This document shows positions 1,696-24,416 of a stretch of 62,115 bases of DNA, piece by piece; position 1 is the stretch's first letter; every line of letters starts with the position of its first letter. Below the pieces are notes generated by a model that saw nothing but the letters and a program-made list of their open reading frames with translations, had not been told where the DNA came from and made no database searches. Position numbers and translations under genes: made by a program. The stretch lies in the sequence record DRR378314_172; one strand, 5' to 3'.

Positions 1696-1770
1696 CCGGC
1701 CCGCCCGAACCAACCGGCCCAACCAAACGCCGAGTATTGCCGTACACATGTATCAAGAACTGCGCCGACT

Positions 1771-3072: not shown

Positions 3073-3166
3073 ACCGTCACCCTTGACGACAATTCATAGT
3101 TGATTACCTTCAGCCGAGGAATTTCCAAATCTAACCCTGGGTTGTAAGAATATATAGGATTGCCTG

Positions 3167-4528: not shown

Positions 4529-4636
4529 GATGGCAAAAGCTGAATATATATTTGTGAAGACCCCAATTCGCCCCAAAGGGCAAACAACAACCTCTGGCCC
4601 TATTTAAAGAGCCGCACGTAACGGGAGTTAGCAATA

Positions 4637-5161: not shown

Positions 5162-5198
5162 GCGCCACGACGCGTTTGGACAGGGACAGGTGAGAGAC

Positions 5199-6692: not shown

Positions 6693-6741
6693 TTCGTTTT
6701 CCCCCCGGAAAGCGATGTGTAGCGCCTAAAGGAGTTATTTC

Positions 6742-7239
6742 ATGGCGATTGATTGTTTTTTGAAACTTGATAACGGCATCGTTGGCGAATGCCAGGATGA
6801 TAAACACAAGGATTGGATCGACATCCTGTCCTGGGGCTGGTCGCTGTCTCAGTCCGGCACCACCCACACCGGTGGCGGCGGCGGCGGCGGTAAAGTCGAC
6901 GTTCAGGACATTCAGGTCACCAAATACGTGGACAAAGCAACCCACGACCTGATCAAGCGTTGCTGCTCCGGTGAGCACATCAAATCCGGTCAGCTGGTTG
7001 TTCGTAAATCCGGCGGCACCGCTCCGGTCGACTACCTGAAGATCGACTTTGAAGACGTGATGATCACCACCTACCAAACCGGTGGCAGCAAGGATGGCCT
7101 GGACCGCGTTCAGGAAACTCTGACGCTGAACTTCCGTCGCTTCCAGGTGACCTACACCTTCCAGGAACAGACCGGTGCCGCAGGCCCGGAAAGCCTGGCT
7201 GGCTGGGAAATCGCCGAGAACAAGGAATGGGGCAAGTAA
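6742..7239 (+). CDS. hcp: T6SS tube protein Hcp (TssD)
   Basis: GECQDDKHKDWIDILSWGW, GGGGGGKVDVQD, ETLTLNF; RBS AAGGAG upstream. Confidence 0.96.
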   Translation: MAIDCFLKLDNGIVGECQDDKHKDWIDILSWGWSLSQSGTTHTGGGGGGGKVDVQDIQVTKYVDKATHDLIKRCCSGEHIKSGQLVVRKSGGTAPVDYLKIDFEDVMITTYQTGGSKDGLDRVQETLTLNFRRFQVTYTFQEQTGAAGPESLAGWEIAENKEWGK

Positions 7240-7268
7240 GACCAGCCCCACTGGTTCGATATATCCCC

Positions 7269-7293
7269 GAGAAGGCCGTCCTGCGGCCTTCTC
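7269..7293 (+). terminator. Stem-loop after hcp (possible terminator or mRNA-stabilising hairpin)
   Basis: GAGAAGGCCG-tcctg-CGGCCTTCTC inverted repeat 30 nt after the hcp stop, followed by a pyrimidine-rich tail without a clear U-run. Confidence 0.5.
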
Positions 7294-7373
7294 CCTTCTC
7301 AGCGCAACGGCCCGCGCTTTAAACCGGGGTCGTATCTCTACCTAATTTTCAGTCCGGTGCAGAAGGTGCAGAC

Positions 7374-7967
7374 ATGCGGCGCGGCGAAGCGGACAATTCT
7401 GAAACCGGTGACCTCCGCTGGCAAACTGGCCGCAAGGCCAAGACCTCCATTCTACAGGTGTTCCGCGCCTCTCACAGCGACCGCGACGCCCATCGTCGGC
7501 GCGAGATTTCCGGTGATGGCACCGCGCAGTTGACCTCTGCACGCAAGCAACGTCGGTTTGGCGTCTCCGAGAACGAATTGCGCCAACATCTCGAAGCGGA
7601 TCTGGCCGCACTCCTCAACACCATCCATTTGGAGGCGGTCTCGTCCCTAGAGGATGCACCACATGTGGCAAATTCCATTTTGAACTACGGGTTTCGTGAT
7701 CTCAGCGGCATGGGCAAGGTCGCGCTCAACACCCCTGCCGTTGTGGACACGTTGCGGCAATCTCTGATCCGGTTTGAACCGCGCCTCATTGCCGACAGTC
7801 TCGATGTGCAGATCCGCGACACCAGTGGCGGGAAAAACCATCATCTGGCGATCTTTGTCAGCGCCGAACTGCTGGGCGATCCTGTCGATGTGCCACTTGA
7901 TTTCGATGCCGAAATTGATCTCGGCGCCGGCAAGATGTCCCTGTCCAACCTGCGGGTGAACGCATGA
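7374..7967 (+). CDS. tssE: T6SS baseplate subunit TssE (gp25-like)
   Basis: DLAALLNT...SILNYGFRDLS...FEPRL motifs; stop overlaps the tssF start (ATGA). Confidence 0.9.
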   Translation: MRRGEADNSETGDLRWQTGRKAKTSILQVFRASHSDRDAHRRREISGDGTAQLTSARKQRRFGVSENELRQHLEADLAALLNTIHLEAVSSLEDAPHVANSILNYGFRDLSGMGKVALNTPAVVDTLRQSLIRFEPRLIADSLDVQIRDTSGGKNHHLAIFVSAELLGDPVDVPLDFDAEIDLGAGKMSLSNLRVNA

Positions 7968-9892
7968 GACGAGCGCTCCGCGATGCCTATAACCAAGAGC
8001 TTGGCCTGCTGAAGGAACGCGCGGCAGAATTTGCCGGCGAATATCCGGGCCTTGCGGACCGGCTTGGTGGGTTGCTTGAAGAAAACATGGACCCTGCCGT
8101 TGCAGGGCTGCTGGAAGGGTCGGCGTTCCTGTCCGCACAGGTCAAGGTCAAGATGGCCGAGGAGTACCAGACCTTTACGCGTGAACTGCTGGAGCAGATC
8201 TTTCCCGATGCACTGGCTCCGACCCCCAGTGTGATGCTGGTCAAGGCCCATGCGCCAGTAGACAGTCCAGAAATCGAAACCGGCCTGTCCTTCACCGCGG
8301 GTGAATACATGGACGCCCGGTTTCTTGATGCCCAGCAGCGCGTCTCCTGCCGCTTTTCACTCGCCGCCCCTCTCACGGTCTGGCCCATAGGCATCACCGA
8401 AGCCGCCTATCATGCCAGCGCCGGCCCGATCAGCGCCCTGGGTCAGGAAATCGCCAGCGGCACCAAGGCCGGTCTGGTGGCGGATGTCTCCCGCCTTGAC
8501 AAGAATGGGGTGCCAAGCCTCAGCGACAGCCTCAACACGCTCGAAATGGACAGTCTGACACTGCATTTCACCGCCCCGATGGATGAAGCGGCTGTGCTCT
8601 ATGAGCAGGTCTTCTGTGATTGCACACGGGTGTCGCTGCGCTGGCTCAACGCGCAGGGAGATCCGGTATTCGCGCGGCTTTCACCAAATCAGATTCACAA
8701 GATCGGCTTTGGCGATGGGGAACAGTTGTTCCCCCATCAAAAACGCCTGTTCGATGGTTTTGCCCGGCTGCGCGAATTTTTCGTCTTCCCCCGCAAGTTT
8801 CTCGGCCTGCGCCTGAGCGGTCTTGGGAACATTCTGCCGCATGTACGCAGCAACACGGTGCAGCTGGTGTTTGAATTCTCCAGCGCACGCCAACGACTGG
8901 CCGCCAGCCTTGATCCGCAGGATCTCGCAGTGAACGTGGCCCCGACTGTGAACCTCTTTGAGGAAATGTCCAGCCATCTGCATCTCGACCGCAAGCGGCA
9001 TGAATACACCATCACACCAAACTCAAGCCCGATCACCCATTACGAGGTGCATCACGTCACGGAGGTCTGGGCGCACTACACCGACCGGCAGAGCAAATCC
9101 GAAGTCTACCCGCTCTATGCACTGCCGCCAGAAGGCAAGAACGCACGGCAGACGTTGTATTTCACCACGCGGCGCAAACCACGCCGTCGCACATTGGCAG
9201 AACAGCGCAAGGGCATTCCCCGCAACCTCTATCGCGGCACTGAAACCCTGATCAGCCTCTACCAGCCCTCAGAACACGACAGCGTCACTCGGCTGCAGGT
9301 AAAACTCCTGTGCTCCAATCGCCATTTGCCGGAATACCTGCCGATTGCCGAGAGCACCGAAAGCTTTCACCTCTGTGACGATCAGACCGTCTCCCTGACC
9401 TGCCTCGCGGGACCGACGCCGCCGCGCGACAGCCTTGCGGATCGCGAAACCAACGCCAATCACCGCACGTCGGCGGGCGACACCTATTGGCGTCTGCTGT
9501 CTTATCTTTCGCTTGGCACCTCCGGTCTGCAAAGCCCGGAAGGCGGCATGTCGGCGGCCTCTCTGCGGGAAATGCTGTCGCTGTTTGCAGACCTGTCCGA
9601 CACCGTCAGCGAGGCTCAGATCAGCGGCATTCGTCAACTCGATTGCACTCCGGTGACCCGAACCGTTGCCGCACCCGACGGCTATCACACAGCCCGCGGT
9701 TTGCTGATCCGGGTGACCTTTGACGAGACCGAGTTTGAAAGCACAGGCATCGTTCCCCTTGGCGCGGTTCTGGATCAGTTTTTTGCCGAATACGCCGCGG
9801 TCAATAGTTTCACTCAAACCGTGATCCACAGCCAGCAGCGAGGGGAGATCACCCGCTTCGCTCCCAGATCCGGCGCAGGGGCACTGCTGTGA
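7964..9892 (+). CDS. tssF: T6SS baseplate subunit TssF
   Basis: YNQELGLLKERAAEFAGEYPGLADRL, DPAVAGLLEGSAFL, LREFFVFPRKF, LCSNRHLP, FFAEYAAVNSF. Confidence 0.95.
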   Translation: MRRALRDAYNQELGLLKERAAEFAGEYPGLADRLGGLLEENMDPAVAGLLEGSAFLSAQVKVKMAEEYQTFTRELLEQIFPDALAPTPSVMLVKAHAPVDSPEIETGLSFTAGEYMDARFLDAQQRVSCRFSLAAPLTVWPIGITEAAYHASAGPISALGQEIASGTKAGLVADVSRLDKNGVPSLSDSLNTLEMDSLTLHFTAPMDEAAVLYEQVFCDCTRVSLRWLNAQGDPVFARLSPNQIHKIGFGDGEQLFPHQKRLFDGFARLREFFVFPRKFLGLRLSGLGNILPHVRSNTVQLVFEFSSARQRLAASLDPQDLAVNVAPTVNLFEEMSSHLHLDRKRHEYTITPNSSPITHYEVHHVTEVWAHYTDRQSKSEVYPLYALPPEGKNARQTLYFTTRRKPRRRTLAEQRKGIPRNLYRGTETLISLYQPSEHDSVTRLQVKLLCSNRHLPEYLPIAESTESFHLCDDQTVSLTCLAGPTPPRDSLADRETNANHRTSAGDTYWRLLSYLSLGTSGLQSPEGGMSAASLREMLSLFADLSDTVSEAQISGIRQLDCTPVTRTVAAPDGYHTARGLLIRVTFDETEFESTGIVPLGAVLDQFFAEYAAVNSFTQTVIHSQQRGEITRFAPRSGAGALL

Positions 9893-10998
9893 ATTCGCCG
9901 GTTCCCGCCCCTGTCGCCCCCCGCGCCAGCGACGTTTTGGAGAAACGTGACAGGCAGAAACGGTCTGCCACTGGTGTCGGCCTGTTCACGCTGTTGCGCG
10001 AATTGGAACGCCGCGCTGACAACAAGCCCGCCATCGGTCAGAACAAGCGCTTGCGCGATGCGATCGTGCATCTGGGGCAGGATCCGGCGCTGGCCTTCCC
10101 GACCCGCGACGTCGCACGGGTTGATCTAAGTGAGAGCACACCGCGCTTGCGGGCGCAATTCATGGGGTTGTTCGGTGCCTTCGGCGCCCTGCCGCTCAAC
10201 TGGACCGAAGAGGTCGAGTCCTGGTTCGCGGCCGGGGATGAGAGCTTTGTCGCGTTCTGCGATATTTTCACCGCCCGTTTCCAAGAGCTGTTCTTCCGCG
10301 CCTGGTCCGACGCACAACCGATTACCCAGTTTGACCACGCCGACAGTGATCGCTTTCAGGCCTACATCCTGTCCCTCCTGGGCTGCGGTTCAGCCGCTGT
10401 CCGCACGTCCAAGCAGCTCGATGACATGACCAAGCTGCATCTGGCACCGCTTGCGGTCGGCCGGGTCAAAAGCCCGGTACGGCTGCGACAAATGCTGGAA
10501 CTGCGGTTCGATGGGCGCGCGACCTTTCGCATCGAGGAACATGTGCCCTGCTGGCTTGCCCTGGAACCCGACGCCCTCTGTCTGCTCGGCGATCAGGGAT
10601 GTACATTGGGCGAAAACGCGGTTCTCGGAGGTCACGTGCAATCGCTAAGTGCCAAGATCCGTATCCATGTGATGCTACGCGATCTTGGTCAGTACCAGCG
10701 CTTCCTGCCGGGCGGCGCCGATCATGCGGCACTGCAGGCCATCGTGTTCTGGTATTTGGGTCAGGCCTTCGACATCGAAACCGCGCTGTGGCTGCCCCGC
10801 CCCGAGATCTCCACTGCAGTGCTCGGCCAGAGCACGCAGGTTGGCTGGCTGGCCTGTATCGGCCCTGTTGCAACGCCAGAGCCGGGCGCCCCACCCGGTG
10901 CCCAGCCCATCACCGCCGCAGATCATATGCAGGTCAGCCGCTATCCGCTCCTGCCCGAACCCTTTGTCGACGATGAATTGAAGTCCACCGCAGCCTGA
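9889..10998 (+). CDS. tssG: T6SS baseplate subunit TssG
   Basis: LGQDPALAFP, FMGLFGAFGALPL, FCDIFTARFQELFFRAW, YQRFLPGG; overlaps the tssF stop. Confidence 0.93.
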   Translation: MNSPVPAPVAPRASDVLEKRDRQKRSATGVGLFTLLRELERRADNKPAIGQNKRLRDAIVHLGQDPALAFPTRDVARVDLSESTPRLRAQFMGLFGAFGALPLNWTEEVESWFAAGDESFVAFCDIFTARFQELFFRAWSDAQPITQFDHADSDRFQAYILSLLGCGSAAVRTSKQLDDMTKLHLAPLAVGRVKSPVRLRQMLELRFDGRATFRIEEHVPCWLALEPDALCLLGDQGCTLGENAVLGGHVQSLSAKIRIHVMLRDLGQYQRFLPGGADHAALQAIVFWYLGQAFDIETALWLPRPEISTAVLGQSTQVGWLACIGPVATPEPGAPPGAQPITAADHMQVSRYPLLPEPFVDDELKSTAA

Positions 10999-11029
10999 TA
11001 GGCGACGGTACAATCGAGGCCCATATTTG

Positions 11030-13747
11030 ATGACCGAAATCACCATTGAGAAATACGCCGGCAAGATGAACCGCGCCGGCTATGACGCCTTCCTGCACAG
11101 CATGCGCGAGGCCCGTGGCGCCCGCAACCGCTATGTCGATCTGTGTCACTGGCTGTTTCATTCGGTGTCGAACCAGAACGCCGACATCTCCGTCACCCTG
11201 CGCCAGCTGAACCTGGACCGGGGCCGCGTGCTCAAGGATCTGTCGGCGGCGATGGATCGGCTGGACAAGAATGTCACCGAAACCCCCGGCATCAGCGATC
11301 ATCTCGCGGATGCGCTGAACCACGCCTGGACCTATGCGACGCTGTTTTTCGGCGAGGCGCAGATCCGCACCGGCCATGTGCTCACCGCGCTGCTGAATGA
11401 CCCGTCGCTGCGGCGCCAGCTGCTGCGTTACTCCTCGGTGTTCGAACAGATCTCCGCCGAGCAGCTTGGCCAGGACAGCCGCAGCCTCTGGACCGGCAGC
11501 GAAGAGGACAGCATGCGCCCGATGGACGGCGCCAACCTCTCCACCGCCGAGGATGCGGCGGAGGGCGGCGCGGGCAAGGGCGGCACCACCGCGCTGGGAC
11601 GCTTTGCCAAGGACATGACCGCAGCCGCCGCCGAGATGGACCCGATCAAGGGCCGCAACGACGAGATCCGCCAGCTGACCGACGTGCTGCTGCGCCGGCG
11701 CCAGAACAACCCGATCCTCACCGGCGAGGCCGGGGTCGGCAAGACTGCCGTGGTCGAGGGCTTTGCCCAGCTCCTGGCGGCGGGCGACGTGCCGCCCAAG
11801 CTCAAGGGCACCCGCCTGTTCGAACTGGACATCCAGTCGATGCAGGCCGGCGCCTCGATCAAGGGCGAGTTCGAACAGCGGCTGAAATCGGTGATCGACG
11901 AGGTGCAATCGGCGCCCGAGCCGATCATCCTGTTCATCGACGAGGCCCATACGCTGATCGGCGCCGGGGGGCAGGCGGGCACCGGCGATGCCGCCAACCT
12001 GCTGAAACCGGCGCTGGCGCGCGGCACCCTGCGCACCATCGCCGCCACCACCTGGAGCGAGTACCGCCAGCATATCGAGAAAGATCCGGCCCTGACCCGG
12101 CGTTTCCAGCCGGTCAATGTCGACGAGCCCTCGGTCGAGGTCTGCTGCGACATGCTGCGCGGCATCCTCGGCCCGATGCAGGCGCATCACAACGTGCGGA
12201 TCTCCGACGCCGCCATCGTCAGCGCCGTGACCCTGTCGCATCGCTACATTCCGGCGCGGCAGCTGCCCGACAAGGCGGTGTCACTGCTCGATACCGCCTG
12301 CGCCCGCGTCGCCCTCAGCCAGTCCGCCCTGCCCGCCCGCATCACCGCCACCCGTGCCCGGATCGAGGCGCTGGAGGCCGAGCTGGACGGCAAGACTGCC
12401 GCCCGCGACCTCGGCGAGGTGCATGACGAACGCCTCATCGAGATCCGGACCGAAATCGCAGAGCTGTCCGACCGGCTGGCGACGCTGGACACCAGTTACA
12501 CCCGCGAGAAGGAGATCGTCGATCAGGTGCTGGACCTGCGCGCCCGGCTGCACGCGCAGGACGCTGCAACGCCCGGCGCGACCGACCTCGAGACAGACGA
12601 GACGGCGGACGCCGGGCCACCGCCGGCAGAGGCTGCAGACGACACGCCGCAGATCGACCCCGACGCCCTGCGCGCCGAGATGCAGAGCCACATGACCGCA
12701 CTGGACGGCGCCAACCCGGACGACCGCATGGTCTTTGCCCATGTGGATGCGCAGGCGGTGGCCTCGGTGATTTCCGACTGGACCGGCATCCCGGCGGGCC
12801 GGATGATGCAGGACGAGCTGGACGCGGTGCTGAACCTCGCGGACGACCTGCGCGCCCGCGTCATCGGTCAGGACCACGGGCTCCAGTCCATCGCCAAACG
12901 CATCGAGATCAGCCGCGCCGGTCTTGGCAATCCCAACAAGCCGATCGGCGTCTTCATGCTCTGCGGCCCCTCCGGCGTCGGCAAGACTGAAACCGCCCTG
13001 GCCCTGGCCGAGACGCTTTATGGCGGGGAACAGAACGTCATCACCATCAACATGAGCGAATTCCAGGAGGCCCATACGGTCTCGCTGCTGAAAGGCGCGC
13101 CTCCGGGCTATGTCGGCTATGGCGAAGGCGGGCGGCTCACCGAGGCGGTGCGGCGCAAGCCCTATTCGGTGGTGCTGTTGGACGAGGTCGAAAAGGCCCA
13201 CCCGGATGTGCATGAGATCTTCTTCCAGGTCTTCGACAAGGGGGTGATGGAGGATGGCAACGGCCGGGTGATCGACTTCAAGAACACGCTGATCCTGCTC
13301 ACCTCCAACGTCGGCACCGAGGTGATCATGGACCGGGCGCCCGATGACGGCAGCGCCCCCGACCTCGAGGCGCTGGAGGTTGCGCTGAAACCCAGCCTGC
13401 TGGAGGTCTTCCCGCCGGCGCTGCTGGGCCGCATCGTCACCGTGCCCTATCTGCCGCTCGGCGCGAAGGTGCTCGGCGGCATCACCCGTCTGAAACTCGC
13501 GGCGGTGGAAAACCGCCTCAAGGGGGCCCATGGCACCGAGCTGGTCTATGGCGCCGATGTCATCGACCATATCACCAGTCTGTGCCGCGACCCGGACAGC
13601 GGCGGGCGGATGATCGACAATATCATCACCAATTCGATCCTGCCGGAGCTGAGCCGCAAGGTCCTCAAGACCCTCAGCAGCGGCGGCGAGATCCATCGCG
13701 TCATCGTCAGCGCCGATGCGGACGGGTTCCACTACGTACTGAGCTGA
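11030..13747 (+). CDS. tssH: T6SS AAA+ ATPase TssH/ClpV
   Basis: Two AAA+ modules (RRRQNNPILTGEAGVGKTA; GPSGVGKTETA), LLKGAPPGYVGYGEGGRLTEAVRRKPYSVVLLDEVEKAH; ClpV-type N-domain; T6SS context. Confidence 0.96.
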   Translation: MTEITIEKYAGKMNRAGYDAFLHSMREARGARNRYVDLCHWLFHSVSNQNADISVTLRQLNLDRGRVLKDLSAAMDRLDKNVTETPGISDHLADALNHAWTYATLFFGEAQIRTGHVLTALLNDPSLRRQLLRYSSVFEQISAEQLGQDSRSLWTGSEEDSMRPMDGANLSTAEDAAEGGAGKGGTTALGRFAKDMTAAAAEMDPIKGRNDEIRQLTDVLLRRRQNNPILTGEAGVGKTAVVEGFAQLLAAGDVPPKLKGTRLFELDIQSMQAGASIKGEFEQRLKSVIDEVQSAPEPIILFIDEAHTLIGAGGQAGTGDAANLLKPALARGTLRTIAATTWSEYRQHIEKDPALTRRFQPVNVDEPSVEVCCDMLRGILGPMQAHHNVRISDAAIVSAVTLSHRYIPARQLPDKAVSLLDTACARVALSQSALPARITATRARIEALEAELDGKTAARDLGEVHDERLIEIRTEIAELSDRLATLDTSYTREKEIVDQVLDLRARLHAQDAATPGATDLETDETADAGPPPAEAADDTPQIDPDALRAEMQSHMTALDGANPDDRMVFAHVDAQAVASVISDWTGIPAGRMMQDELDAVLNLADDLRARVIGQDHGLQSIAKRIEISRAGLGNPNKPIGVFMLCGPSGVGKTETALALAETLYGGEQNVITINMSEFQEAHTVSLLKGAPPGYVGYGEGGRLTEAVRRKPYSVVLLDEVEKAHPDVHEIFFQVFDKGVMEDGNGRVIDFKNTLILLTSNVGTEVIMDRAPDDGSAPDLEALEVALKPSLLEVFPPALLGRIVTVPYLPLGAKVLGGITRLKLAAVENRLKGAHGTELVYGADVIDHITSLCRDPDSGGRMIDNIITNSILPELSRKVLKTLSSGGEIHRVIVSADADGFHYVLS

Positions 13748-14540: not shown

Positions 14541-14926
14541 TGCCCCGCCCCCTCGCCATCACCATTCTGGCCGGCTTTGCGCTGTTTGGGCTTGTGGTGG
14601 CGGGCTGGGGTCTATGGGACATTGCCGCCGCCCTCACCGCCCTGTCGGACTGTGCAGGGCAGGTCATCTTGGACAGCAGCGCCTTCTGGTTTCTGGCGAT
14701 GGCAGTGCTACCGCTGTTCCTGCTGCTGGCGCGTCTGGATCAACGCAATCACACGCGCCTGCTGGCGGGGATTGTGGCGCTGGCGATCACGCTGCCCGCC
14801 GGTGGCTTCGTGATGGTGCAGCATCGCGCGGCAACGACGGGGCATAGCTTTGTTCCCCCACTCACGCTGTTTGCCCTGCGCGAGGTCACGGCAGCCCGCC
14901 CGCCAGCCTGCGACATTGACAGCTAG
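14540..14926 (+). CDS. Putative immunity protein (DUF1240/Tmi-like, about 3 TM)
   Basis: 128 aa, three hydrophobic segments, C-terminal Cys; start overlaps the effector stop (TGATG), the usual effector-immunity layout. Confidence 0.55.
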   Translation: MPRPLAITILAGFALFGLVVAGWGLWDIAAALTALSDCAGQVILDSSAFWFLAMAVLPLFLLLARLDQRNHTRLLAGIVALAITLPAGGFVMVQHRAATTGHSFVPPLTLFALREVTAARPPACDIDS

Positions 14927-17073
14927 AGCTGCGCCAGCAACGCATCAATCTGTGACATGTAGGCCTTGACCTCGGGCGGGATGGCAACGACCGCACGCCG
15001 CCCCCCCTCCTGCATCTTGCGATCCGCCCAGGCCAGCAGATCGGCAATCCGGTCGCCCTCCAGGAACGGATTTGCCGCCACCACCTGAGCGCCCAGAACC
15101 TCCTCGACGCTCAGCTCCGGATCGCTAGCCAGCGCCCGATGCGCCCCTTCCGCGCCGAGGAAATGCGCCAGATACAACCGCCCGGCGGTGACCTGATGGC
15201 CGCGGGCGCGCAGATAGGTCTCACCTTCCTGCGCCAGGCGGCGCACCATCTCCCGGCTCAAGACGGGATCATTGCGCAACTCCAGAAGCTCGGCCCGCGA
15301 AAGCTCCGCGACAAGATCAGGCCGGTAGCTGGTCATCATCCGGACCCAGGTGCTGGCGATGAACTGCCCGGCCCCCGTGGCCGAGGACAACGGGTTCTGC
15401 GCATCGGCGCGCCCGCCGCTCTCCACCTGGATGATACGGTCGACCAACGCCGCCACCGCGCCGCTGCCGAATTGCGCCGGATCGGTGGGCCGCCCGCCGA
15501 CCCAGAGCTCAAAATGCAGATGCGGCCCGGTGGAGCGTCCGGTGGAGCCGACAAACCCGATCTGCGCCCCGGCGGCCACGTGTACCCCGGGCGAGATCCC
15601 GTCGGCAAACCCCTGTAGGTGAGCGTATCGGGTCTCCACGCCATCTGCATGACTGATCGCCACCAGATTGCCATAGCTGCCGCTGTCCCCGGCCAGGCGG
15701 ATCTCGCCGGCGCGCGCCGCATAGACCGGCGTGCCTTCGGGGGCGGCCCAGTCGACACCATTGTGCGGCAGCATCTTGTCGCGGATCGGATGCATCCGCA
15801 TGCCAAAGCCGCTGGTCTTCACGCCGGTCACCGGAATTGCCAGCCCGGCCCCCAGCCGCATCCCGCCGCCACCACCGCTGGCACCATCGAAACACCCAAA
15901 ACTTGCCTCCGGCCCGGATTTCTGCGTGACATAGCATTGCATGCTTTCCGAGGACCCTTCGATACCGGCATACAGGATCTGGCCCGCGCTCCCCTCCTCA
16001 ACATCGCTGGAGAACAGAAGAACCAGACGCTCCCCCTCCTCAGCCAATCGCTCCAGATCGAACCGCCGCGACATCATCACGATCAACTCGCCGACGAGCC
16101 CGGTCGAAACACCATTGCGCAGCGCCGTGGAATAGAGCGCATCCATCAGGCGCACACTCCGCCCCGGCACATCTTGTCCCATCAGCTGATCGGAGCGTTG
16201 CAACAGATCCTGCTCGGCCCATGGATCGGCAGCCCGAGCGAACCGGCCAGGGCCATTCTGCGCCAGACTCGCCAGATACCTGTCCGGCGCATAGAGCGAC
16301 AGCTGCAGCAGCTGGCGCCCTTGCACCACCTCCGGGCCGGTTCTGGAGCGCAAGGCGACCACGCTGCCCGCGTCTATCTCGCCCTCCACGCCAGCAATAC
16401 GGTTGACCGCAGAGGCGATCGCTTCGGCTTGCGCGATGTCGAACCCGGCGTCGGTCAGCACGTCCAGCAACATCTGCCGCGTATTCAATATGATGATATC
16501 ATCATCAAACAGCGCGGTTCGCCGAGTTCCAGGCGTTGCCAATGCGACACTGGCATCCCGCTGCGCAATTTCCGATCCGCCGTCGGTGCTGTCCCCACCA
16601 TGCAGAGCATCCCTGCGCTGCGCCTGAAACAACGCAAAATCATCCCTGCCGGACGGCAACTGCAGCACCAGATTGCGCCCGCTCGCTACAAGGTCATCCT
16701 GCAATGCCGACAGGCGATTCATCTGTGCGCGACCGCTGGTGGCAAGCGCGCCATCGGATGGAAGCGCAAGATCCTGAACCCTGTCCCCATCGCCTTCATC
16801 GACATGAAGCAACATCGGCGCACGGCGCAAATTCAACATTGCGCGCACCCGCGCCTGTCGGACGGACGGTTCCGGCGCGATCGTTTCCGTAGGCACCATC
16901 GCAAGATCCGTATCCACATCAGGCCCGCGGTCACTGCTGAGCCAGATCCCGAGCCCCGCCAGCACGGCCAACGCTGCACCGCCTCCGAGCAACCGTAGCG
17001 CAAGGCGGCGGCGGCGACGTTTGCGTGCTTGTGCCGTCGCCCGCTGAAATGCCGGATCGATTGAGTAGGACAC
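14923..17073 (-). CDS. Membrane-anchored M23 metallopeptidase fused to a lysozyme-like lytic transglycosylase domain
   Basis: N-terminal basic stretch plus TM helix (RKRRRRRLALRLLGGGAALAVLAGLGIWL); M23 motifs HNGVD and STGPHLHFE; C-terminal IIQVESGG...SSATGAGQF..STW...LYLAHFLG transglycosylase motifs. Confidence 0.85.
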   Translation of the reverse strand: MSYSIDPAFQRATAQARKRRRRRLALRLLGGGAALAVLAGLGIWLSSDRGPDVDTDLAMVPTETIAPEPSVRQARVRAMLNLRRAPMLLHVDEGDGDRVQDLALPSDGALATSGRAQMNRLSALQDDLVASGRNLVLQLPSGRDDFALFQAQRRDALHGGDSTDGGSEIAQRDASVALATPGTRRTALFDDDIIILNTRQMLLDVLTDAGFDIAQAEAIASAVNRIAGVEGEIDAGSVVALRSRTGPEVVQGRQLLQLSLYAPDRYLASLAQNGPGRFARAADPWAEQDLLQRSDQLMGQDVPGRSVRLMDALYSTALRNGVSTGLVGELIVMMSRRFDLERLAEEGERLVLLFSSDVEEGSAGQILYAGIEGSSESMQCYVTQKSGPEASFGCFDGASGGGGGMRLGAGLAIPVTGVKTSGFGMRMHPIRDKMLPHNGVDWAAPEGTPVYAARAGEIRLAGDSGSYGNLVAISHADGVETRYAHLQGFADGISPGVHVAAGAQIGFVGSTGRSTGPHLHFELWVGGRPTDPAQFGSGAVAALVDRIIQVESGGRADAQNPLSSATGAGQFIASTWVRMMTSYRPDLVAELSRAELLELRNDPVLSREMVRRLAQEGETYLRARGHQVTAGRLYLAHFLGAEGAHRALASDPELSVEEVLGAQVVAANPFLEGDRIADLLAWADRKMQEGGRRAVVAIPPEVKAYMSQIDALLAQL

Positions 17074-17085
17074 CGCGCGCCCGGC

Positions 17086-18528
17086 CTAGCGGAAGACGCC
17101 GCCCAGAGCAGCGCCCGGAGCAATCTGGGTCTGAGCAGGCGCAGGGTTGGCCGGAGCTTGCGCCGCCGGGCGGGACGCTGCAGGGGCGGTGGTTGTCCGA
17201 GGCGGTGATATGGCGGCAATCGGCTGTGTACAAGTCACGTCCTCACGCCCGATAATTGCACGAAACAGCGACACGCTGGCGGCTTGTGTCGGAGCTGGGA
17301 CGCCAACTTCGGTATAATAGCGTTGGACGGCGCGTTGCGATCCCGGCCCCCAGGCACCGTCGACGCGGCTGGTATAACATCCCATACGGGCCAGCTCCTG
17401 CTGCAATGCCTGTACCAGAACAGGGCCCGGCGGATCAAAGGCACCGCTGGAAACCAAATTGGCAAACAACTCCGGGTTCTGTCGCTGCAGCTGCTGGCGT
17501 GCCTCTACACTATCATAGCTGATCTCGCTGCCCGACAGGTCCGACGGATCCAACGCCGCCGAGAATCTCTGATCCGCGCCTTCAACAAGGCCGACGATAA
17601 TAGAGGGTTCAGGCAGGCCTTCTGCACGGGGCACCTCAGCCAGCTGTGGTGATGGAACAGGTGAGAAGATCATCACCTGAGATTGTGCATCAGGCTGGAC
17701 CAGCGGACGCGCCTCGGTGGTCCCAGGGCTGCGCACCGGGGTCAGGCCGACAGAAGCACTGGCCGGAATGTTGGCCGGAGCACTGGCCGGGGTCACTCGC
17801 ACCACATCAGTGATCATCACCTGATCGCTGCGCGGGGTATCAGCGGATGCAGTCTCCGGGGGGATCACTTCAACCTGTGGCAACTGTTGCGCAGAGCCCT
17901 GTCGCAGAAAGGGCACCAGAACGGATACAGGGGCGGCAGAAGGTTTTGACGCATTTCGAAGCGCATCGCTGAGCCGCTCGCCTTCGACCGGACACGCCGC
18001 GCCTGCTTCGGCGCTGGCTGCGATAACCAATGTGAAACGGTTCGAGATACCTGGATCCGGCAAAGCGGAGGCGCGGTCAGTGTCTCCTGCGCAATTCTCC
18101 ACCAACAGCAGCAAATGCCTCAGCCCATCATCCGCAAGGGTCTCGATACGCGGAGCCAATGGAACGTCACGTCCATCCACGCGCATCATATCGTCGGCAA
18201 GCGGGCCAGCATAATAGAGGACAAGCCGTGAGTGCCCCCGCAGGTCGGCAAAGGCCGCATCAACCGCGTCAATGTTGGTGTTGCGCAACAGAACAGGTGC
18301 CTGGCTGCCCCAGCTCTGCACTGCTTCCGCCGCATAATAGGAATCTGCAAAGGCGCGTCCCGCCCCCTGCCCGGTATCTCCAACAACCAGCGCAGGCCAA
18401 TCCTGCGCCATGCCGAAGCTGCCGATGACGCAACCAAAGGCGCCGAGCACAAAAGAAGACCACCGAGGAGCAAACGTCAAAACAAGCCTCAACGCACAAT
18501 GGGAAGAATTGCTATCTCTATTTCGCAA
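17086..18528 (-). CDS. Exported caspase-like (probably inactive) protein with C-terminal peptidoglycan-binding domain
   Basis: Signal-like N-terminus; caspase-fold-like strands ALVVG, LVLYYAG and LLLVENC; C-terminal LQQELARMGCYTSRVDGAWGPGSQRA (PG_binding_1-like). Start codon uncertain (TTG). Confidence 0.6.
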   Translation of the reverse strand: MRNRDSNSSHCALRLVLTFAPRWSSFVLGAFGCVIGSFGMAQDWPALVVGDTGQGAGRAFADSYYAAEAVQSWGSQAPVLLRNTNIDAVDAAFADLRGHSRLVLYYAGPLADDMMRVDGRDVPLAPRIETLADDGLRHLLLLVENCAGDTDRASALPDPGISNRFTLVIAASAEAGAACPVEGERLSDALRNASKPSAAPVSVLVPFLRQGSAQQLPQVEVIPPETASADTPRSDQVMITDVVRVTPASAPANIPASASVGLTPVRSPGTTEARPLVQPDAQSQVMIFSPVPSPQLAEVPRAEGLPEPSIIVGLVEGADQRFSAALDPSDLSGSEISYDSVEARQQLQRQNPELFANLVSSGAFDPPGPVLVQALQQELARMGCYTSRVDGAWGPGSQRAVQRYYTEVGVPAPTQAASVSLFRAIIGREDVTCTQPIAAISPPRTTTAPAASRPAAQAPANPAPAQTQIAPGAALGGVFR

Positions 18529-18569
18529 CCATACCTTGCACCGCCTAGAGAAGCGACCGGAAGATCGCG

Positions 18570-18992
18570 CTAATCATCTGTAGAGCGCAGAAAAAATGAC
18601 CAACTGCTCGATTGCTCCGTGTCAACCTCGTGAAAGCGCGCGTCGATAAAGCCACGAGTCAGGCACTCTTCCTCGCCACGGATGAAGAACCGGCCGGTAT
18701 CCACACACATCGGAGTGGCCCCATCCAGCAACGCCCGTCCAAACACATCTTTGGCAAAGACATACACAAACCGCGACGTCAGGTTTTCGCTGATCACCTC
18801 TGCGCATTGATTGGGTCCGACGACCCACCATCCTGAACTCTCGAACGCCCCGTCATCATAGGCCGCCACCGCAACATTGGCGACGTCCAGGGTCTGATTG
18901 CAGAATGTGAACTCGGCACGCGCCGGCCCTGCGATGTACAGACCGGCACACAGGGCCGCGCCGAAAACAGCTTTTAACATATTGATGTACAT
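18570..18992 (-). CDS. DUF1036 family exported protein
   Basis: Signal peptide ending ARA, then FTFCNQT...SSGWWVVGPNQC...FVYVFAKD...C..RGF..ARFHEVDT, the DUF1036 pattern. Confidence 0.8.
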   Translation of the reverse strand: MYINMLKAVFGAALCAGLYIAGPARAEFTFCNQTLDVANVAVAAYDDGAFESSGWWVVGPNQCAEVISENLTSRFVYVFAKDVFGRALLDGATPMCVDTGRFFIRGEEECLTRGFIDARFHEVDTEQSSSWSFFLRSTDD

Positions 18993-19132
18993 GCTTTCTT
19001 ATAACGTCCACCCTCCGTCGAAGCATTCTTGGATGACGCGACACACGAGGACTTGGCAACATTTTGTCACCCTACACCATGAAGTTGAACGAAATGACTG
19101 GCAATCGCCATTTGGAAGTCTACAATTGAGGT

Positions 19133-19747
19133 ATGGTTCGTATTGCTGTGATCATTGCAGGCACCGCCTGCCTCTCTATTGCGACAGGCATGGTTCTGAC
19201 GCTGAGCCATGGTGCCCTGTCGAACAAGAATCGGATCAGTTCGCTGTCCGGTTTGCAGGACACGGTCCCCGCTCCGCCCAACAGTGCAGCTCCAGCTGAC
19301 CCAACGCGGTCACAATCGGGTCAGAGCGCTCCGAAACCGCTCGCTGACGTCTCGATCAGCCGCTCCTCCTCCGACAGTGACAAGCGCACGGTATCGAACG
19401 AAACGCCGATCCGGGTACGTCCTCAAGGCGATACGGCGCAATCCACCATTACAGCAACCTTTGATCGATCCACAGCAGTGGCGAAATCAGAGCCGGCGCT
19501 GTCTCAGACGGATGTCGTGCGACCACCAGAACGTCCCTCCGAAACATCTCTACCGAGGGCTCAATCTAATGTTGCGCCCATTGGGTCGTCTGATCAGGCC
19601 CTTGAAGAAAGTCAGCCCCCCACCACTTTTGCGGCACGGGAAACACCTCGGCAATCCTCCCCCGATCTGGTCTCTCTCCCTCCGCAATTGTCGCGCCAGA
19701 GTACGATTTCACCGAACCCAAGTTTCTTCATTGGTGTTTTTCGCTGA
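19133..19747 (+). CDS. Hypothetical exported/membrane-anchored, S/P/T-rich disordered protein
   Basis: 204 aa ORF with RBS GAGG; hydrophobic N-terminal helix, low-complexity body, C-terminal FFIGVFR. Confidence 0.6.
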   Translation: MVRIAVIIAGTACLSIATGMVLTLSHGALSNKNRISSLSGLQDTVPAPPNSAAPADPTRSQSGQSAPKPLADVSISRSSSDSDKRTVSNETPIRVRPQGDTAQSTITATFDRSTAVAKSEPALSQTDVVRPPERPSETSLPRAQSNVAPIGSSDQALEESQPPTTFAARETPRQSSPDLVSLPPQLSRQSTISPNPSFFIGVFR

Positions 19748-19852
19748 TTCGCCTCGTGCGGGTATAAAATTCAAAAAATTCCCGGTTGACCTGTGGGCAT
19801 GATTGCCGCCCAAATGGCCACGATTTGATTATTCAGACTCGTTGAGGACACC

Positions 19853-20305
19853 ATGGGCATTCTGACTGCGGCCAAGACATTCGTTCTGGCCACTACAATC
19901 CTTGCAACACAGACTGCTGCGACCTTCGCACAGGACACATCAGAGCAAACGGAAGAGTTTCAACTCGACCTCAATTCGGTCACCGAAACAACCGAGGGTA
20001 GCTGCCGACTGACGTATGTGGCCTCAAATCGGTCATCTACGGCGCTGGATCGTGCATCCTACCAGATCGCCTTGTTTGACGGCGAAGGCGTGGTGACTCG
20101 ACTGCTGGTTCTTGAATTCGGCGAATTGACCGAAGGCAAAACCAAGGTTCTGCAATTCGATCTGGCAGAAACCGGGTGCGGTTCGATTTCGCGTATTGTG
20201 GTCAATGACTCGCCCGCATGTGTCGCCAGTGACGGCAGCGCAATCGACCTGTGCATGTCAGGTCTCGTTGCTAGCTCCCGCACCCCGATCCAGTTCGGTA
20301 TTTGA
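19853..20305 (+). CDS. Conserved periplasmic protein of the type found upstream of alphaproteobacterial exbBD operons
   Basis: Signal peptide; LDLN...CRLTYV..N...LFD.EGVV.RL.VLEFGEL..GKTKV.QFDL...C..ISRIVVND...C; RBS GAGGA. Confidence 0.65.
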   Translation: MGILTAAKTFVLATTILATQTAATFAQDTSEQTEEFQLDLNSVTETTEGSCRLTYVASNRSSTALDRASYQIALFDGEGVVTRLLVLEFGELTEGKTKVLQFDLAETGCGSISRIVVNDSPACVASDGSAIDLCMSGLVASSRTPIQFGI

Positions 20306-20370
20306 GCCAGCGCGTCATTCTGTTTTGAAACGGCTGGCCGCCCAGGGCGTCCACGCCATGGAGTAATCCC

Positions 20371-21018
20371 ATGACAAATTTCCGGGCAGACATGTTCGAT
20401 CCGTTGACGCTGATCGTTTTTGCAGCCCTTGCCGTGATGTCCGTCACCGTCTTGTCGGTCTTTTTCTTCAAGCTGCTGCAGTTTTCCCGCCTCGGCGTCG
20501 GTAAACGCCGGTTGGCAGAGCAGATCATCAACACCTGGCTGTCCGGGCAGGCCGAAACAGCCATGCAGCAGGCCGCCGCACGTCAATCTGTATTATCACG
20601 CATCCTGCATGCGGTGTTCACAGGCTTGCGTGCACGTCCGGGTGAAACCGCTTATGCAGAGGAGCTGGGTCGTCAAACTGCGATTTCCGAACTGGCGACC
20701 CTGTCTGATCGTATTCGTCTGCTGGAAATCGCAGTACACGCGGCCCCCATGCTCGGCCTGCTGGGGACTGTGATCGGCATGATCGACGCCTTTTCCGTTC
20801 TGGCACAATCGCAAGCGGCCGCAGACCCCGCAGCTCTTGCCGGCGGCATCTGGACCGCGCTGACCACAACAGCTGCTGGCCTCGCAGTCGCGCTGGTCGC
20901 GTTCTTCCTGACCAACTGGCTCGACGCACGCATCGAACGGGAGCGTAATCTGATCGAAGTGCTGATCTCTGCGGCAATTCACGGCCGGGTCGATCAGTCT
21001 GCGCGAGTGCAGGGCTAA
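20371..21018 (+). CDS. exbB: MotA/TolQ/ExbB proton channel family protein
   Basis: APMLGLLGTVIGMIDAF and LAGGIWTALTTTAAGLAVA signature helices. Confidence 0.9.
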   Translation: MTNFRADMFDPLTLIVFAALAVMSVTVLSVFFFKLLQFSRLGVGKRRLAEQIINTWLSGQAETAMQQAAARQSVLSRILHAVFTGLRARPGETAYAEELGRQTAISELATLSDRIRLLEIAVHAAPMLGLLGTVIGMIDAFSVLAQSQAAADPAALAGGIWTALTTTAAGLAVALVAFFLTNWLDARIERERNLIEVLISAAIHGRVDQSARVQG

Positions 21019-21024
21019 CCACAG

Positions 21025-21480
21025 ATGCAGATCAACCGGCTTGACCTTCCCATCCGCAAGCGGCGCGTCAGTTTCACGCTGACGTCGCTGGCGGATGTGA
21101 TGTTTCAGCTTCTGGTGTTTTTCATGCTGTCCTCCAGCTTGACCCCATACGCTCTACTGCCGCTTCACCGGACAGACCCAGTGTCAGATGAACGTATCGG
21201 GACCGGTTCTGGTCGCGAGACCACAACTGCAACCGCCGTAGGCGCCCCTAGCGCCGCACCTTTATGGAACCTTGAATCCGGTTCACTGTCGATACGCGGT
21301 CAATCCTTCGACTATACTGCCCTGCCCGATCTCGTCGCGGCATTGGGCAGCGAGACCACGCCTGCTTCGGTAGTCCTGATCGTCAAGGCCTCGGCTCGGG
21401 TTCAGGACGTGGCCACCGTATTGGCACATTTGCAGGCTGCGGATGTGACCGCGGTCCAAATCAGCGCAGGAGGGTTTTGA
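21025..21480 (+). CDS. exbD: ExbD/TolR family protein (canonical TM Asp)
   Basis: TSLADVMFQLLVFFML TM helix; C-terminal ARVQDVATVLAHLQAA...VQI. Confidence 0.85.
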   Translation: MQINRLDLPIRKRRVSFTLTSLADVMFQLLVFFMLSSSLTPYALLPLHRTDPVSDERIGTGSGRETTTATAVGAPSAAPLWNLESGSLSIRGQSFDYTALPDLVAALGSETTPASVVLIVKASARVQDVATVLAHLQAADVTAVQISAGGF

Positions 21481-21887
21481 AAATGCCCCGTCGTGCGCCA
21501 CTGCTTCCGCCACGCCCGCAAATGGTTCAGACCGACACCTCGCTGGCGATCGTCAATGTGGTCCTGCTGCTGTTGCTGTTCTTTCTCGCCAGTGGATCGC
21601 TCATTGCGACCCGAGACACTGAAATTCAACTGCCGTCGACACAGGAATTGTTTCCCGAACAACTGCCAAGTCCACTGCTGGAGGTGCGGCTTGATGGAAG
21701 CCTGCGCCTTGATGGCGACCCAACCACGCTGCCCCGGCTGAACACTGCGCTGACGCCTGGCGGCACGCTCTATGTCCTGATGGAGCGTACGGCTCCAGCC
21801 CTCGATCTGCTGGAGCTGCTGGCCCAGCCGCCCTTTGCCGAGATGAATGTTACCTTGGTCACGATACATGAGCAGGCGGATACGTGA
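21477..21887 (+). CDS. exbD: Second ExbD/TolR family protein (Asp replaced by Asn)
   Basis: SLAIVNVVLLLLLFFLASG TM helix, IQLP and LEVRLDGSLRLDG; overlaps the previous stop (start TTG 21477 or ATG 21483). Confidence 0.75.
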   Translation: MKMPRRAPLLPPRPQMVQTDTSLAIVNVVLLLLLFFLASGSLIATRDTEIQLPSTQELFPEQLPSPLLEVRLDGSLRLDGDPTTLPRLNTALTPGGTLYVLMERTAPALDLLELLAQPPFAEMNVTLVTIHEQADT

Positions 21888-23233
21888 GCATTCTTCCTTA
21901 TGGTCGTCCTGAGTCTTCGGGCTGGTTTTTTGCCAGTAGCGGATCACTGGCCGCACATGCTCTTGTCGGTGTGTTCATTCTCGGCGGGCTGCAGCCTCTC
22001 CTTCTGGCCGCACCACCATCGACGGATGCACCACGCTACAGCGTCACGTTACAGCCGCTTGATTCAGATACGCTGGCCGGGCTGGAATTACGCGAGGGCT
22101 TGGCTGGAGCCGAGATCCTTGAAGACAGCTCCGCCAATGTCGATCCCCTGCAGCCGGTGGAGGGGCTTGAAAGTCTGACAGCGGAAGACATCGACGAAGA
22201 AGAGCTTGCGGCACTGGGCCCGGACAACACTGATGCAACCCCACTACCGACGGGCCCGGAGCCTGTTTTGGCAGAACCGGTCGAAGCGGATCCCGTAGCA
22301 CCCGACACACAGGAACAGGAAACCGCAACGCTCGCCCAAGTGACGGCAGATCCGGTCCCACAGGACAGCCCGCTCTCTCCACTGATCCCCGAAGACACCA
22401 ACCCGTTGATCCCGGAAACGGTGACCGCCATCGCCTCATCCGGAGTGGCGACCATCTCCGCGGCACCGGTTTCCTCGCGGCCTTCGCCAGATGCAGTGGC
22501 GGTTCTTCAAAATGAGGCCCTTCGCCCTGTCGCAGTGCCCTCCTCCGGCGCAAGTGCGGGTCAGCCAGCCGAAGCCCAGGATACGACCACGTCGGCCCGC
22601 CCCCCTGCCAGCGCACAGGACCTTGCGGTGGGGAATCTCATCCGGAAGATCCGCGAAAACACCGGGCCCGATTGCCTACTGACCCTGCCACGCCGCGACG
22701 GCGAAGCAGGCGTCGGTCTTGATATGATGGCAACACGAGATACGGCGTTTTCCGAATTCTCCCGTACGACACTGACCCAAGGTGACGAAACACTGCGTCA
22801 GACGCGGACGCTGCTTGACCCACGGCAATGCCCGGCTGTGGACTACATCCGCGACAACCGGGACTACCCCGCTACACGTCTCGGCTTGCGTCTAGACACC
22901 CCGAATGTGGTCAGCGGAAACCGGATCACCGGTGTGCTGCGCGGCACCGGCGGCAAATACGTGGCCCTGCTCTTGGTCGACAACAACGGCGTGGTTCAGG
23001 ATCTGCAGCGGTTCCTCTCGCAGTCCGGCAACTTCACCCGCTTTGATGTACCGGTGACACGTGCGGGGCCCCGACGCGATACCGCACAAATCCTGCTCGC
23101 CGTTGCAAGTTCCAACCCGCTGCAACAGATCCGAGATCGCAGTGGCCGGCTGGCGGCGGATGTGTTTGCGGGACTGCACGCAGGGCTGACAGGACGCGAA
23201 GCGATCGCTGTTACAACGTTCGACGTACGCTGA
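21884..23233 (+). CDS. TonB/TolA-like energy transducer with atypical C-terminal domain
   Basis: N-terminal TM helix with S-x3-H (SLAAH), long acidic/Pro-rich linker and a ~200 aa globular C-terminal domain with two Cys; coupled to exbD (GTGA overlap). Confidence 0.6.
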   Translation: MSILPYGRPESSGWFFASSGSLAAHALVGVFILGGLQPLLLAAPPSTDAPRYSVTLQPLDSDTLAGLELREGLAGAEILEDSSANVDPLQPVEGLESLTAEDIDEEELAALGPDNTDATPLPTGPEPVLAEPVEADPVAPDTQEQETATLAQVTADPVPQDSPLSPLIPEDTNPLIPETVTAIASSGVATISAAPVSSRPSPDAVAVLQNEALRPVAVPSSGASAGQPAEAQDTTTSARPPASAQDLAVGNLIRKIRENTGPDCLLTLPRRDGEAGVGLDMMATRDTAFSEFSRTTLTQGDETLRQTRTLLDPRQCPAVDYIRDNRDYPATRLGLRLDTPNVVSGNRITGVLRGTGGKYVALLLVDNNGVVQDLQRFLSQSGNFTRFDVPVTRAGPRRDTAQILLAVASSNPLQQIRDRSGRLAADVFAGLHAGLTGREAIAVTTFDVR

Positions 23234-24401: not shown

Positions 24402-24416
24402 TCCGGCGCTGATCGG

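Follow-up and report, generated by a model that had tools for sequence, protein, structure and literature searches.

An ExbB/ExbD-type motor module within type VI secretion clusters of Rhodobacterales, a candidate input to the kinase PpkA

Motors of the Ton/Tol type, with a 5:2 composition, are known to drive import, gliding, type IX secretion and the maintenance of the envelope. We know of no motor of this type that has been tied to a type VI secretion system (T6SS) or to a Hanks-type kinase. In the stretch of DNA analyzed here, 62,115 nucleotides of the sequence record DRR378314_172 (referred to as the window), a block of nine predicted envelope genes with one exbB-like and two exbD-like members is embedded in the T6SS gene cluster of a marine roseobacter.

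On the side of the T6SS, the closest described systems are the periplasmic inputs to the kinase PpkA. PMC10482370 states that PpkA initiates T6SS assembly after dimerisation and that its periplasmic input differs by species, with TagQRST and RtkS as described versions and an unknown one in Agrobacterium. The T6SS clusters of roseobacters are assigned to 'group three' in PMC9515649, according to which none of the roseobacter T6SSs has a known function.

The comparison with relatives described below indicates that the block in the window is very probably an accessory motor dedicated to the T6SS. Our preferred reading, to which we assign a probability of roughly 0.5, is that it would act as an energised input to the threonine-phosphorylation switch of PpkA and TagH. 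The nine genes are arranged in two divergent units between positions 14923 and 23233:

14923..17073, minus strand: membrane-anchored peptidoglycan hydrolase with an M23 and a lytic-transglycosylase-like part, 716 amino acids (Pfam and PDB sequence matches)
17086..18528, minus strand: exported, putative peptidoglycan-binding tail protein, 480 amino acids, ends with GGVFR (Pfam match near the cut-off, homologues)
18570..18992, minus strand: exported DUF1036 protein (Pfam, 111 bits)
19133..19747, plus strand: tethered-tail protein, 204 amino acids, ends with FFIGVFR (no Pfam or NCBIfam family)
19853..20305, plus strand: periplasmic 4-Cys protein, 150 amino acids, with signal peptide (no Pfam or NCBIfam family)
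20371..21018, plus strand: proton-channel subunit of ExbB/TolQ type (Pfam MotA_ExbB)
21025..21480, plus strand: plug subunit ExbD1 with the canonical membrane Asp (Pfam ExbD, 42.5 bits)
21477..21887, plus strand: plug subunit ExbD2 with Asn in place of Asp (Pfam ExbD, 26.9 bits)
21884..23233, plus strand: TonB/TolA-like transducer, 449 amino acids (no Pfam or NCBIfam family)

An earlier sequence-only reading of this DNA had proposed nine envelope genes in two divergent units, directly behind clpV and a gene pair. All nine open reading frames (ORFs) were found at these positions, and ClpV and two membrane-protein genes precede them. Pfam matches bear out its assignments of the M23 domain, the DUF1036 protein, exbB and the two exbD genes, and the transglycosylase part is indicated by a PDB sequence match to gp144. 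Its statement that no TonB-dependent receptor, TolB or Pal is encoded in the window is likewise correct; none of these and no CpoB was detected among the 62 window ORFs scanned with Pfam. The genes exbD1 and exbD2, as well as exbD2 and the gene of the 449-amino-acid protein, overlap by four bases.

Conservation of the block was followed in the best 80 of 130 relatives that were found by a profile of the 449-amino-acid protein in a collection of species genomes; genome-wide statements rest on the genomes of relatives and not on the window's own assembly. These 80 loci represent about 20 named genera, all of them Rhodobacterales, and the exceptions in labelling are metagenome-assembled genomes with a higher-rank label only and one 1.4-kb contig binned as Chromatiales. 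The genes exbB, exbD1 and exbD2 adjoin the gene of the 449-amino-acid protein in 77 of the 80 loci. At least one T6SS gene is located within 10 kb in 69 loci, a core tss gene in 65 and a tag or threonine-phosphorylation-pathway gene in 58. Eight of the 11 loci without a nearby T6SS gene are short or truncated contigs. The linkage to the T6SS has been kept through at least five different gene arrangements, and ppkA is directly convergent with the gene of the 449-amino-acid protein in 55/80 loci. The commonest layout starts with clpV, continues with the genes of the M23 enzyme, the peptidoglycan-binding protein and DUF1036, then with those of the tail protein, the 4-Cys protein, exbB, exbD1, exbD2 and the 449-amino-acid protein, and ends with ppkA, pppA, tagF, tssM, tssL and tssK. 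The largest unassigned gap from clpV to tssM in the compact loci (n=35) is at most 2.1 kb, so that neither a receptor gene nor tagQRST would fit.

The composition of the block varies between loci. The M23 and DUF1036 genes are absent from many loci; DUF1036 is missing from Tateyamaria-type and other loci, and the M23 gene is present in type-B-like loci. The core of the module consists of the peptidoglycan-binding tail protein, the tethered-tail protein, the 4-Cys protein, exbB, exbD1, exbD2 and the 449-amino-acid protein. Since the linkage is conserved across genera, a chance adjacency is unlikely, and the block is no stray housekeeping Ton/Tol system but a dedicated module that accompanies T6SS genes. 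The sequence-only reading had proposed an apparatus dedicated to the T6SS and a neighbourhood and phyletic check of this idea. Within Rhodobacterales this check located the blocks mostly at T6SS loci, with no room for a receptor gene in the 35 compact loci. The proposal is supported by the 69/80 loci and by the presence of TssF in 34 of 35 module-bearing genomes, but it does not hold for all nine genes as a unit.

The phyletic distribution was determined in 301 Rhodobacterales genomes with a completeness of at least 90%. The family of the 449-amino-acid protein occurs in 35 of these genomes (19/113 genera) and TssF in 83; 34 of the 35 genomes contain both. TssF was divided into rough classes by score and profile coverage, a proxy and not a tree, and by this division the module is present in 29/32 genomes with the TssF class of the window, in 5/37 genomes with a higher-scoring class and in 0/11 genomes with a third class. 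Two further genomes of those 37 carry both TssF classes, and here the module adjoins the cluster of the window's class. Using the periplasmic C-terminal domain of PpkA from a relative (G019) as query, matches were obtained in 39 genomes, namely in all 35 genomes with the 449-amino-acid protein and in G195, G197, G231 and, weakly, G307. The contig of G231 ends within the block. This PpkA domain is also present in the 5 module-bearing genomes whose sole TssF is of the other class, and it was not found in the remaining genomes of that other class. Thus, this type of PpkA follows the module more closely than it follows the type of T6SS, and PpkA, rather than the T6SS structural genes, is the closest phyletic and physical partner of the module.

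Within the genus (Tritonibacter/Epibacterium) the 449-amino-acid protein is encoded in 7/41 relatives, and these are the same seven genomes that contain TssF of the lower-scoring class. The whole block is kept as a unit within the genus and its position varies: it follows clpV in the window, G001, G019 and G006, is located on a different contig in G004, and in G014 and G020 precedes DUF6931-tagH in the same orientation as the core operon. Of the genomes compared with positions 1-31000 (G001, G019 and G006), G001 has the largest share of k-mers in common with the window (41%). ClpV of the window is 90% identical to that of G019, 89% to that of G006 and 67.5% to that of G001, and the corresponding values for the 449-amino-acid protein (tblastn) are 63%, 62.5% and 37%. 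As the T6SS and the module are closer to G019 and G006 despite the highest k-mer sharing with G001, this pattern of identities suggests that the T6SS/module island has been exchanged within the genus.

The genes of the phosphorylation pathway are distributed over the cluster, with TagH in the window and PpkA, a PP2C phosphatase and TagF in the cluster of G019. Beyond a giant autotransporter-like gene the order in G019 is TssK, TssL with an OmpA extension, TssM, TagF, the PP2C phosphatase and PpkA, a Ser/Thr kinase of 697 amino acids. No gene for TssJ, TssK, TssL or TssM was seen within the window; TssK, TssL and TssM are encoded in the same cluster in five relatives. We therefore rejected the idea that the module stands in for the TssJLM membrane complex.

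A link between the module and PpkA is suggested by the 449-amino-acid protein. Its start codon overlaps the stop codon of exbD2 in 53/77 loci. The N-terminus reads MS-x-LP and is followed by a single membrane helix, which contains the motif Ser-x3-His (SxxxH) in 46/52 unique sequences and the His in 52/52; Ser-x3-His in the N-terminal helix is the TonB motif. The subsequent linker is acidic, rich in Pro and of variable length in the alignment. The C-terminal 215 residues (the head) were modelled with a mean predicted local distance difference test (pLDDT) value of 92.5 and would consist of an alpha/beta part and, at head residues 92-215, an Ig-like sandwich. Neither TonB_C nor any other Pfam family matched the protein at E values up to 0.01, and the head gave 0 matches in a profile-based search of PDB sequences. 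The best fold match of the head, 4kh9 (Z 9.1, residues 91-215), is a generic Ig/FN3-like sandwich, and the fold search was barely informative on the first 90 residues. The protein is therefore TonB/TolA-like in architecture only (helix, SxxxH and linker) and does not belong to the TonB family by its head; the TonB-like label of the sequence-only reading is correct to this extent. The Ig-like part shows 32% identity over 115 amino acids to the C-terminal periplasmic domain of PpkA from G019 (E 8e-9), and in most genomes the queries with the 449-amino-acid protein and with PpkA each also match the neighbouring paralogue as reciprocal second matches. The Ig-like half of the head is thus homologous to the periplasmic domain of PpkA and probably its paralogue. 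Two Cys are invariant in the head, and a conserved polar cluster is formed by D-[DN]-N-G-V-V-Q-D and P-V-x-R-x-G-x-x-R-D-T-x-Q.

The motor subunits belong to the expected families. ExbB matches PF01618 (MotA_ExbB) with 92.1 bits (cut-off 22.9) at residues 76-196, in the part with the last two membrane helices, and falls below every NCBIfam equivalog cut-off for TolQ, ExbB and MotA; by its scores it is a member of the family but none of the named orthologues. In G001 it is the fifth paralogue, besides copies in ybgC-tolQ, exbB-exbD and motA contexts and one more copy. The Pfam scores of ExbD1 (42.5 bits) and ExbD2 (26.9 bits) are both above the cut-off of 25.4. Asp24 of ExbD1 is present in 78/78 homologues and aligns with the Asp of canonical ExbD. 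ExbD2 has Asn27 in 77/78 and Ile25 in 78/78 homologues, and this Asn aligns with the proton-binding Asp of ExbD1 and of canonical ExbD, so that the Asp is lacking at this position. Because an exchange of Asp for Asn inactivates ExbD, TolR and MotB motors, a conserved pair of one Asp and one Asn subunit is unusual. The ExbD2 family comprises 148 relatives, and the named genera in the best 80 of these 148 loci are all Rhodobacterales.

Compared with the Ton system, the module shares a channel of the ExbB family and a plug of the ExbD family, the order of motor genes followed by the transducer gene, and a transducer with Ser-x3-His in the N-terminal helix, a Pro-rich spacer and a periplasmic head. 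It differs in that the head has no TonB_C match and, according to the model, is composed of an alpha/beta part and an Ig-like sandwich, in the presence of two distinct ExbD subunits, one of them without Asp, and in its location in T6SS clusters without a nearby TonB-dependent receptor. G001, G019 and G006 encode two TonB_C proteins and between five and nine TonB-dependent receptors elsewhere, and none of these loci is on the T6SS contigs of the three genomes. With Tol-Pal the module has in common the motor, a long-armed transducer and a peptidoglycan-binding partner, and possibly a short disordered terminal peptide as a handle, comparable to the N-terminus of TolB that is bound by TolA. Unlike Tol-Pal, it has no homologue of TolB, Pal or CpoB, in place of an N-terminal box it has G-V-[FY]-R tails at the C-terminus as candidate handles, and a separate ybgC-tolQ locus exists; canonical ybgC-tolQ (in G001) and exbB-exbD loci were found elsewhere in relatives.

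The gliding machinery Agl-Glt of Myxococcus resembles the module in the combination of one TolQ/ExbB-like with two different TolR/ExbD-like subunits, AglR with AglQ and AglS, and in the use of non-canonical TonB-like arms, GltG and GltJ, in the service of a machine other than import. The module has no glt genes, one of its two plug subunits is without Asp, and it would serve the control or assembly of a secretion system and not motility.

The GVFR tails pointed out in the sequence-only reading are real and conserved to a striking degree. The tail is present on the ORF directly upstream of the 4-Cys gene in 66/73 loci and on the peptidoglycan-binding protein in 64/69 loci. The 80 loci contain 8398 six-frame ORFs of 60 or more amino acids; 139 of them end with G[VIA][FYLVI]R, and 130 of the 139 belong to the two module genes. 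The tethered-tail protein of the window consists of one N-terminal membrane helix, a low-complexity linker of about 140 amino acids and the end FFIGVFR. Its homologues contain one hydrophobic helix in 65/68 unique sequences and a linker with a median length of 143 amino acids, and the C-terminal consensus of the family is [FYW]-x-[IVL]-G-V-[FY]-R. A genome-wide search for G-V-[FY]-R-stop gave 13 sites each in G019 and G001, compared to 14 and 7 with a reversed pattern as control, the reading frame being unchecked for sites outside the module. A function of the tail as a general sorting signal was rejected, as there is no genome-wide enrichment over this control. The T6SS contig of G019 contains one further candidate G-V-Y-R-stop site (G019:C56:247022-247036), at a distance of about 12 kb from ppkA on its far side.

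We think that the tail may be a handle bound by a protein of the module. TonB and TolA bind short terminal peptides, and for this reason, together with its conserved acidic and basic cluster, the head of the 449-amino-acid protein would be the first candidate. We also considered the caspase-like domain found in part of the peptidoglycan-binding proteins as a general receptor of the tail, with the terminal Arg as a product mimic, and set this idea aside since short forms without the domain keep the tail.

The 480-amino-acid protein itself was named a pseudo-caspase with peptidoglycan binding in the sequence-only reading. The binding domain is indicated by a match to PG_binding_1 just below the cut-off (22.9 versus 23 bits), and a stretch rich in Pro and Ala precedes the tail. 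The family includes long forms with an N-terminal caspase-like domain and short forms that lack the domain and keep the tail. Five of 15 long-form homologues reach Peptidase_C14 and the His-Cys dyad is intact in L071, L084, L092 and L114; the protein of the window keeps the catalytic Cys motif and has Pro at the position of the His, but has no Peptidase_C14 match in Pfam. The pseudo-caspase label is thus supported indirectly.

The peptidoglycan hydrolase has an N-terminal membrane helix and a Peptidase_M23 domain (PF01551, 111 bits) at residues 436-532. Its PDB relatives include 6muk and 3slu, both at an E value of 1e-34, and ShyA is also among the closest. The metal motifs HxxxD and HxH can be recognized in the translation by eye. 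Residues 538-651 resemble the lytic transglycosylase gp144 of phage phiKZ (3bkh, E 2e-5). In the 4-Cys protein the four Cys are invariant in 72 homologues. An AlphaFold2 model (pLDDT 95) predicts a beta-sandwich of FN3/Ig type with IrmA (5ek5, TM score 0.68) as best fold match, a generic sandwich; the profile search of PDB sequences yielded 0 matches for this protein.

The preferred reading, an energised input to the PpkA/TagH switch, is favoured because of the sensor domain shared with PpkA, the co-occurrence with PpkA in 35/35 genomes, the convergent orientation in 55/80 loci and a position like that of tagQRST. How stator and transducer pair, which partners are bound and what direction and meaning the signal has we infer as follows. 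ExbB and a mixed plug of ExbD1 (Asp) and ExbD2 (Asn) would form a stator in the inner membrane. The translationally coupled 449-amino-acid transducer would dock to it by the SxxxH helix, its linker would cross the periplasm and the two-domain head would be located at the end. Using the proton-motive force, the motor might then alter the occupant or the contact of the PpkA sensor domain. The likeliest handle would be the G-V-[FY]-R tails on the peptidoglycan-bound protein and on the membrane-tethered disordered protein; a direct contact between the homologous heads of the 449-amino-acid protein and PpkA is an alternative. The M23/transglycosylase enzyme and DUF1036, available in part of the loci only, may open the peptidoglycan locally for the apparatus. 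In this way the module would report the state of the envelope in an energy-dependent manner, in a role analogous to that of TagQRST in Pseudomonas aeruginosa and RtkS in Serratia.

The comparison with these inputs supports such a role. In the related H1 cluster of Pseudomonas tagQRST adjoins ppkA-pppA-tagF, and by this gene order the module occupies the position of tagQRST. The components are different, a proton motor with an arm versus a lipoprotein, a periplasmic protein and an ABC-like pair, and the input would be energised. As in the case of TagQRST and RtkS, the module would be expected to act upstream of the FHA protein (PMC10482370, PMC9515649). The contact sensor OmpA-TslA of Acinetobacter is grouped with the periplasmic T6SS inputs, and the components of the module are unrelated to it. 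The module has in common with these inputs that accessory envelope proteins are encoded beside ppkA-pppA-tagF in a cluster of the group-3 type.

Several observations weigh against this assignment. T6SS as such does not need the module, since 49/83 TssF-positive genomes are without it. G195 and G197 contain a T6SS and this type of PpkA but no 449-amino-acid protein, which shows that the kinase can exist without the motor. In G195 the exbB operon has been lost, M23 and DUF1036 are kept at the T6SS flank and no peptidoglycan-binding tail protein was found in the flank searched, a pattern of the tails that we count in favour of the preferred reading; no part of the block was found in G197. In the four genomes of genus g34 the module is about 1.2 Mb away from tssF. 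The conserved polar residues of the head are not common to PpkA in a pairwise alignment, and hence the two heads need not bind the same thing. The genomes are related and not independent, so that the counts overstate the support. G117 can be read in two directions: the module is kept beside tagH, DUF6931, ppkA and pppA (L115, G117:C11:197001-217000) in a genome without TssF and TssC, which we count in favour of the switch. The genome has a size of 2.9 Mb and its ppkA is split over two reading frames, and the locus may be a decaying remnant, which would speak against the assignment, or a case of T6SS-independent use of the module.

A more far-reaching and rather unlikely version of the phosphorylation input is a proton-powered mechanosensor, in which the arm of the Asp/Asn stator would pull on the G-V-[FY]-R handles and thereby free or load the PpkA sensor, so that assembly would be licensed by the mechanical state of the envelope. 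If true, it would be the first Ton/Tol-type motor that signals into a Ser/Thr kinase and the first stator in nature whose plug combines Asp and Asn.

The rival that competes most closely with the phosphorylation input is an assembly and anchoring device, a local Tol-Pal-like machine that would first clear peptidoglycan and outer membrane from the surroundings of TssLM and later anchor them there again. We consider it possible, if doubtful. The block includes a peptidoglycan hydrolase and a peptidoglycan-binding protein, TssL of G019 carries a peptidoglycan-binding extension of the OmpA type, and other T6SSs recruit the peptidoglycan hydrolases MltE and TagX. The module shares with these the encoding of a cell-wall hydrolase in, or its recruitment to, the T6SS cluster; its enzyme is of another family, an M23 and transglycosylase-like fusion, and is, like DUF1036, optional, which counts against this rival. 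TssJ (PF12790) was not found in G001, G019, G006 and G004 and was detected in G014 only in a third, unrelated cluster, in line with PMC9515649, where tssJ is missing from the roseobacter clusters. However, the lack of TssJ is not linked to the module, because T6SS clusters of the same genus without the module, such as the second one of G006, are without a TssJ match as well. An assembly device would also leave the PpkA-like head and the 35/35 co-occurrence unexplained.

The same two features, the shared PpkA domain and the convergent adjacency, would be unexpected if the module were a Tol-like machine, co-regulated with the T6SS, that stabilises the envelope of the producer during firing or attack and has no switching role. 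Tol-type motors do maintain envelope integrity, the proteins of the module are all envelope proteins and the module has been retained in G117, which has no T6SS apparatus, but the genomes already own a ybgC-tolQ locus, and we regard self-protection or repair as improbable. Least probable is an ordinary Ton/Tol system for nutrient uptake whose position next to the T6SS is coincidental, or Ton-type import of a metal-binding effector secreted by the T6SS. The gene order exbB-exbD-exbD-transducer is typical of Ton loci, and T6SS-secreted metal scavengers reportedly work via TonB-dependent receptors. Against both variants stand the missing TonB_C domain, the lack of a receptor in the window and on the T6SS contigs of G001, G019 and G006, the small unassigned gaps in the compact loci, the canonical Ton loci with receptors elsewhere and the linkage across genera, which argues against a chance adjacency; the linkage data have already largely refuted this explanation. 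A pull of the motor on the adjacent autotransporter-like protein, also suggested in the sequence-only reading, is unsupported: the gene of this protein was matched in 1/80 loci, and the common layout clpV-module-ppkA leaves no room for it.

A description of a T6SS module of the ExbB/ExbD, TolQR or TonB type or with DUF1036 was not found in the literature, with subscription journals outside the coverage. In the main text of PMC9515649, which deals with the same Leisingera and Tateyamaria clusters, ExbB, TolQ and TonB do not appear. The present analysis contributes the Asp/Asn plug, tails that are conserved on two partner proteins, the 35/35 phyletic match and the list of exceptions. For the activation of PpkA outside Pseudomonas and Serratia, the module provides a concrete and genetically testable candidate input, and the bacteria concerned are an abundant marine group. 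The module offers two unusual handles on the mechanism, a natural mixed Asp/Asn plug and a four-residue C-terminal tail on two partners.

The remaining features of the cluster in the window are as follows:

3-716, minus strand: autotransporter-like gene with PATR repeats (the window starts inside the gene)
1066..13747, plus strand: T6SS core operon with DUF6931, TagH (FHA), TssA, TssB, TssC, Hcp, TssE, TssF, TssG and ClpV (Pfam)
11027-13747, plus strand: ClpV (Pfam)
13782-14926, plus strand: two membrane proteins without Pfam or NCBIfam family, after clpV
23299-28038, plus strand: GFA-family gene and nrdI-nrdE-nrdF (Pfam)
28617..30665, minus strand: VgrG (Pfam)

The GFA-family gene and nrdI-nrdE-nrdF separate VgrG from the module, and most other genera have ppkA to tssK at this position instead; the cluster is rearranged in the lineage of the window. 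An autotransporter-like gene is located between DUF6931 and tssK of the T6SS cluster in the window, G019, G006 and G004, and the copy of G019 (L020:11501-19999, plus strand) is open for more than 2833 amino acids. The pair behind clpV consists of a 252-amino-acid protein, whose C-terminal half is hydrophobic and rich in Gly, and a multi-pass membrane protein of 128 amino acids. Tritonibacter, Leisingera and one Sagittula locus have the pair at the same place behind clpV. It could be an effector-immunity pair. Outside the T6SS region, a 2-oxoacid dehydrogenase cluster (50800-54474, plus strand) contains an E2 component that is split into separate ORFs, with the lipoyl and E3-binding part at 50800-52119 and the catalytic acyltransferase part at 53527-54474; an aldehyde dehydrogenase ORF (52137-53579) is located between the two parts.

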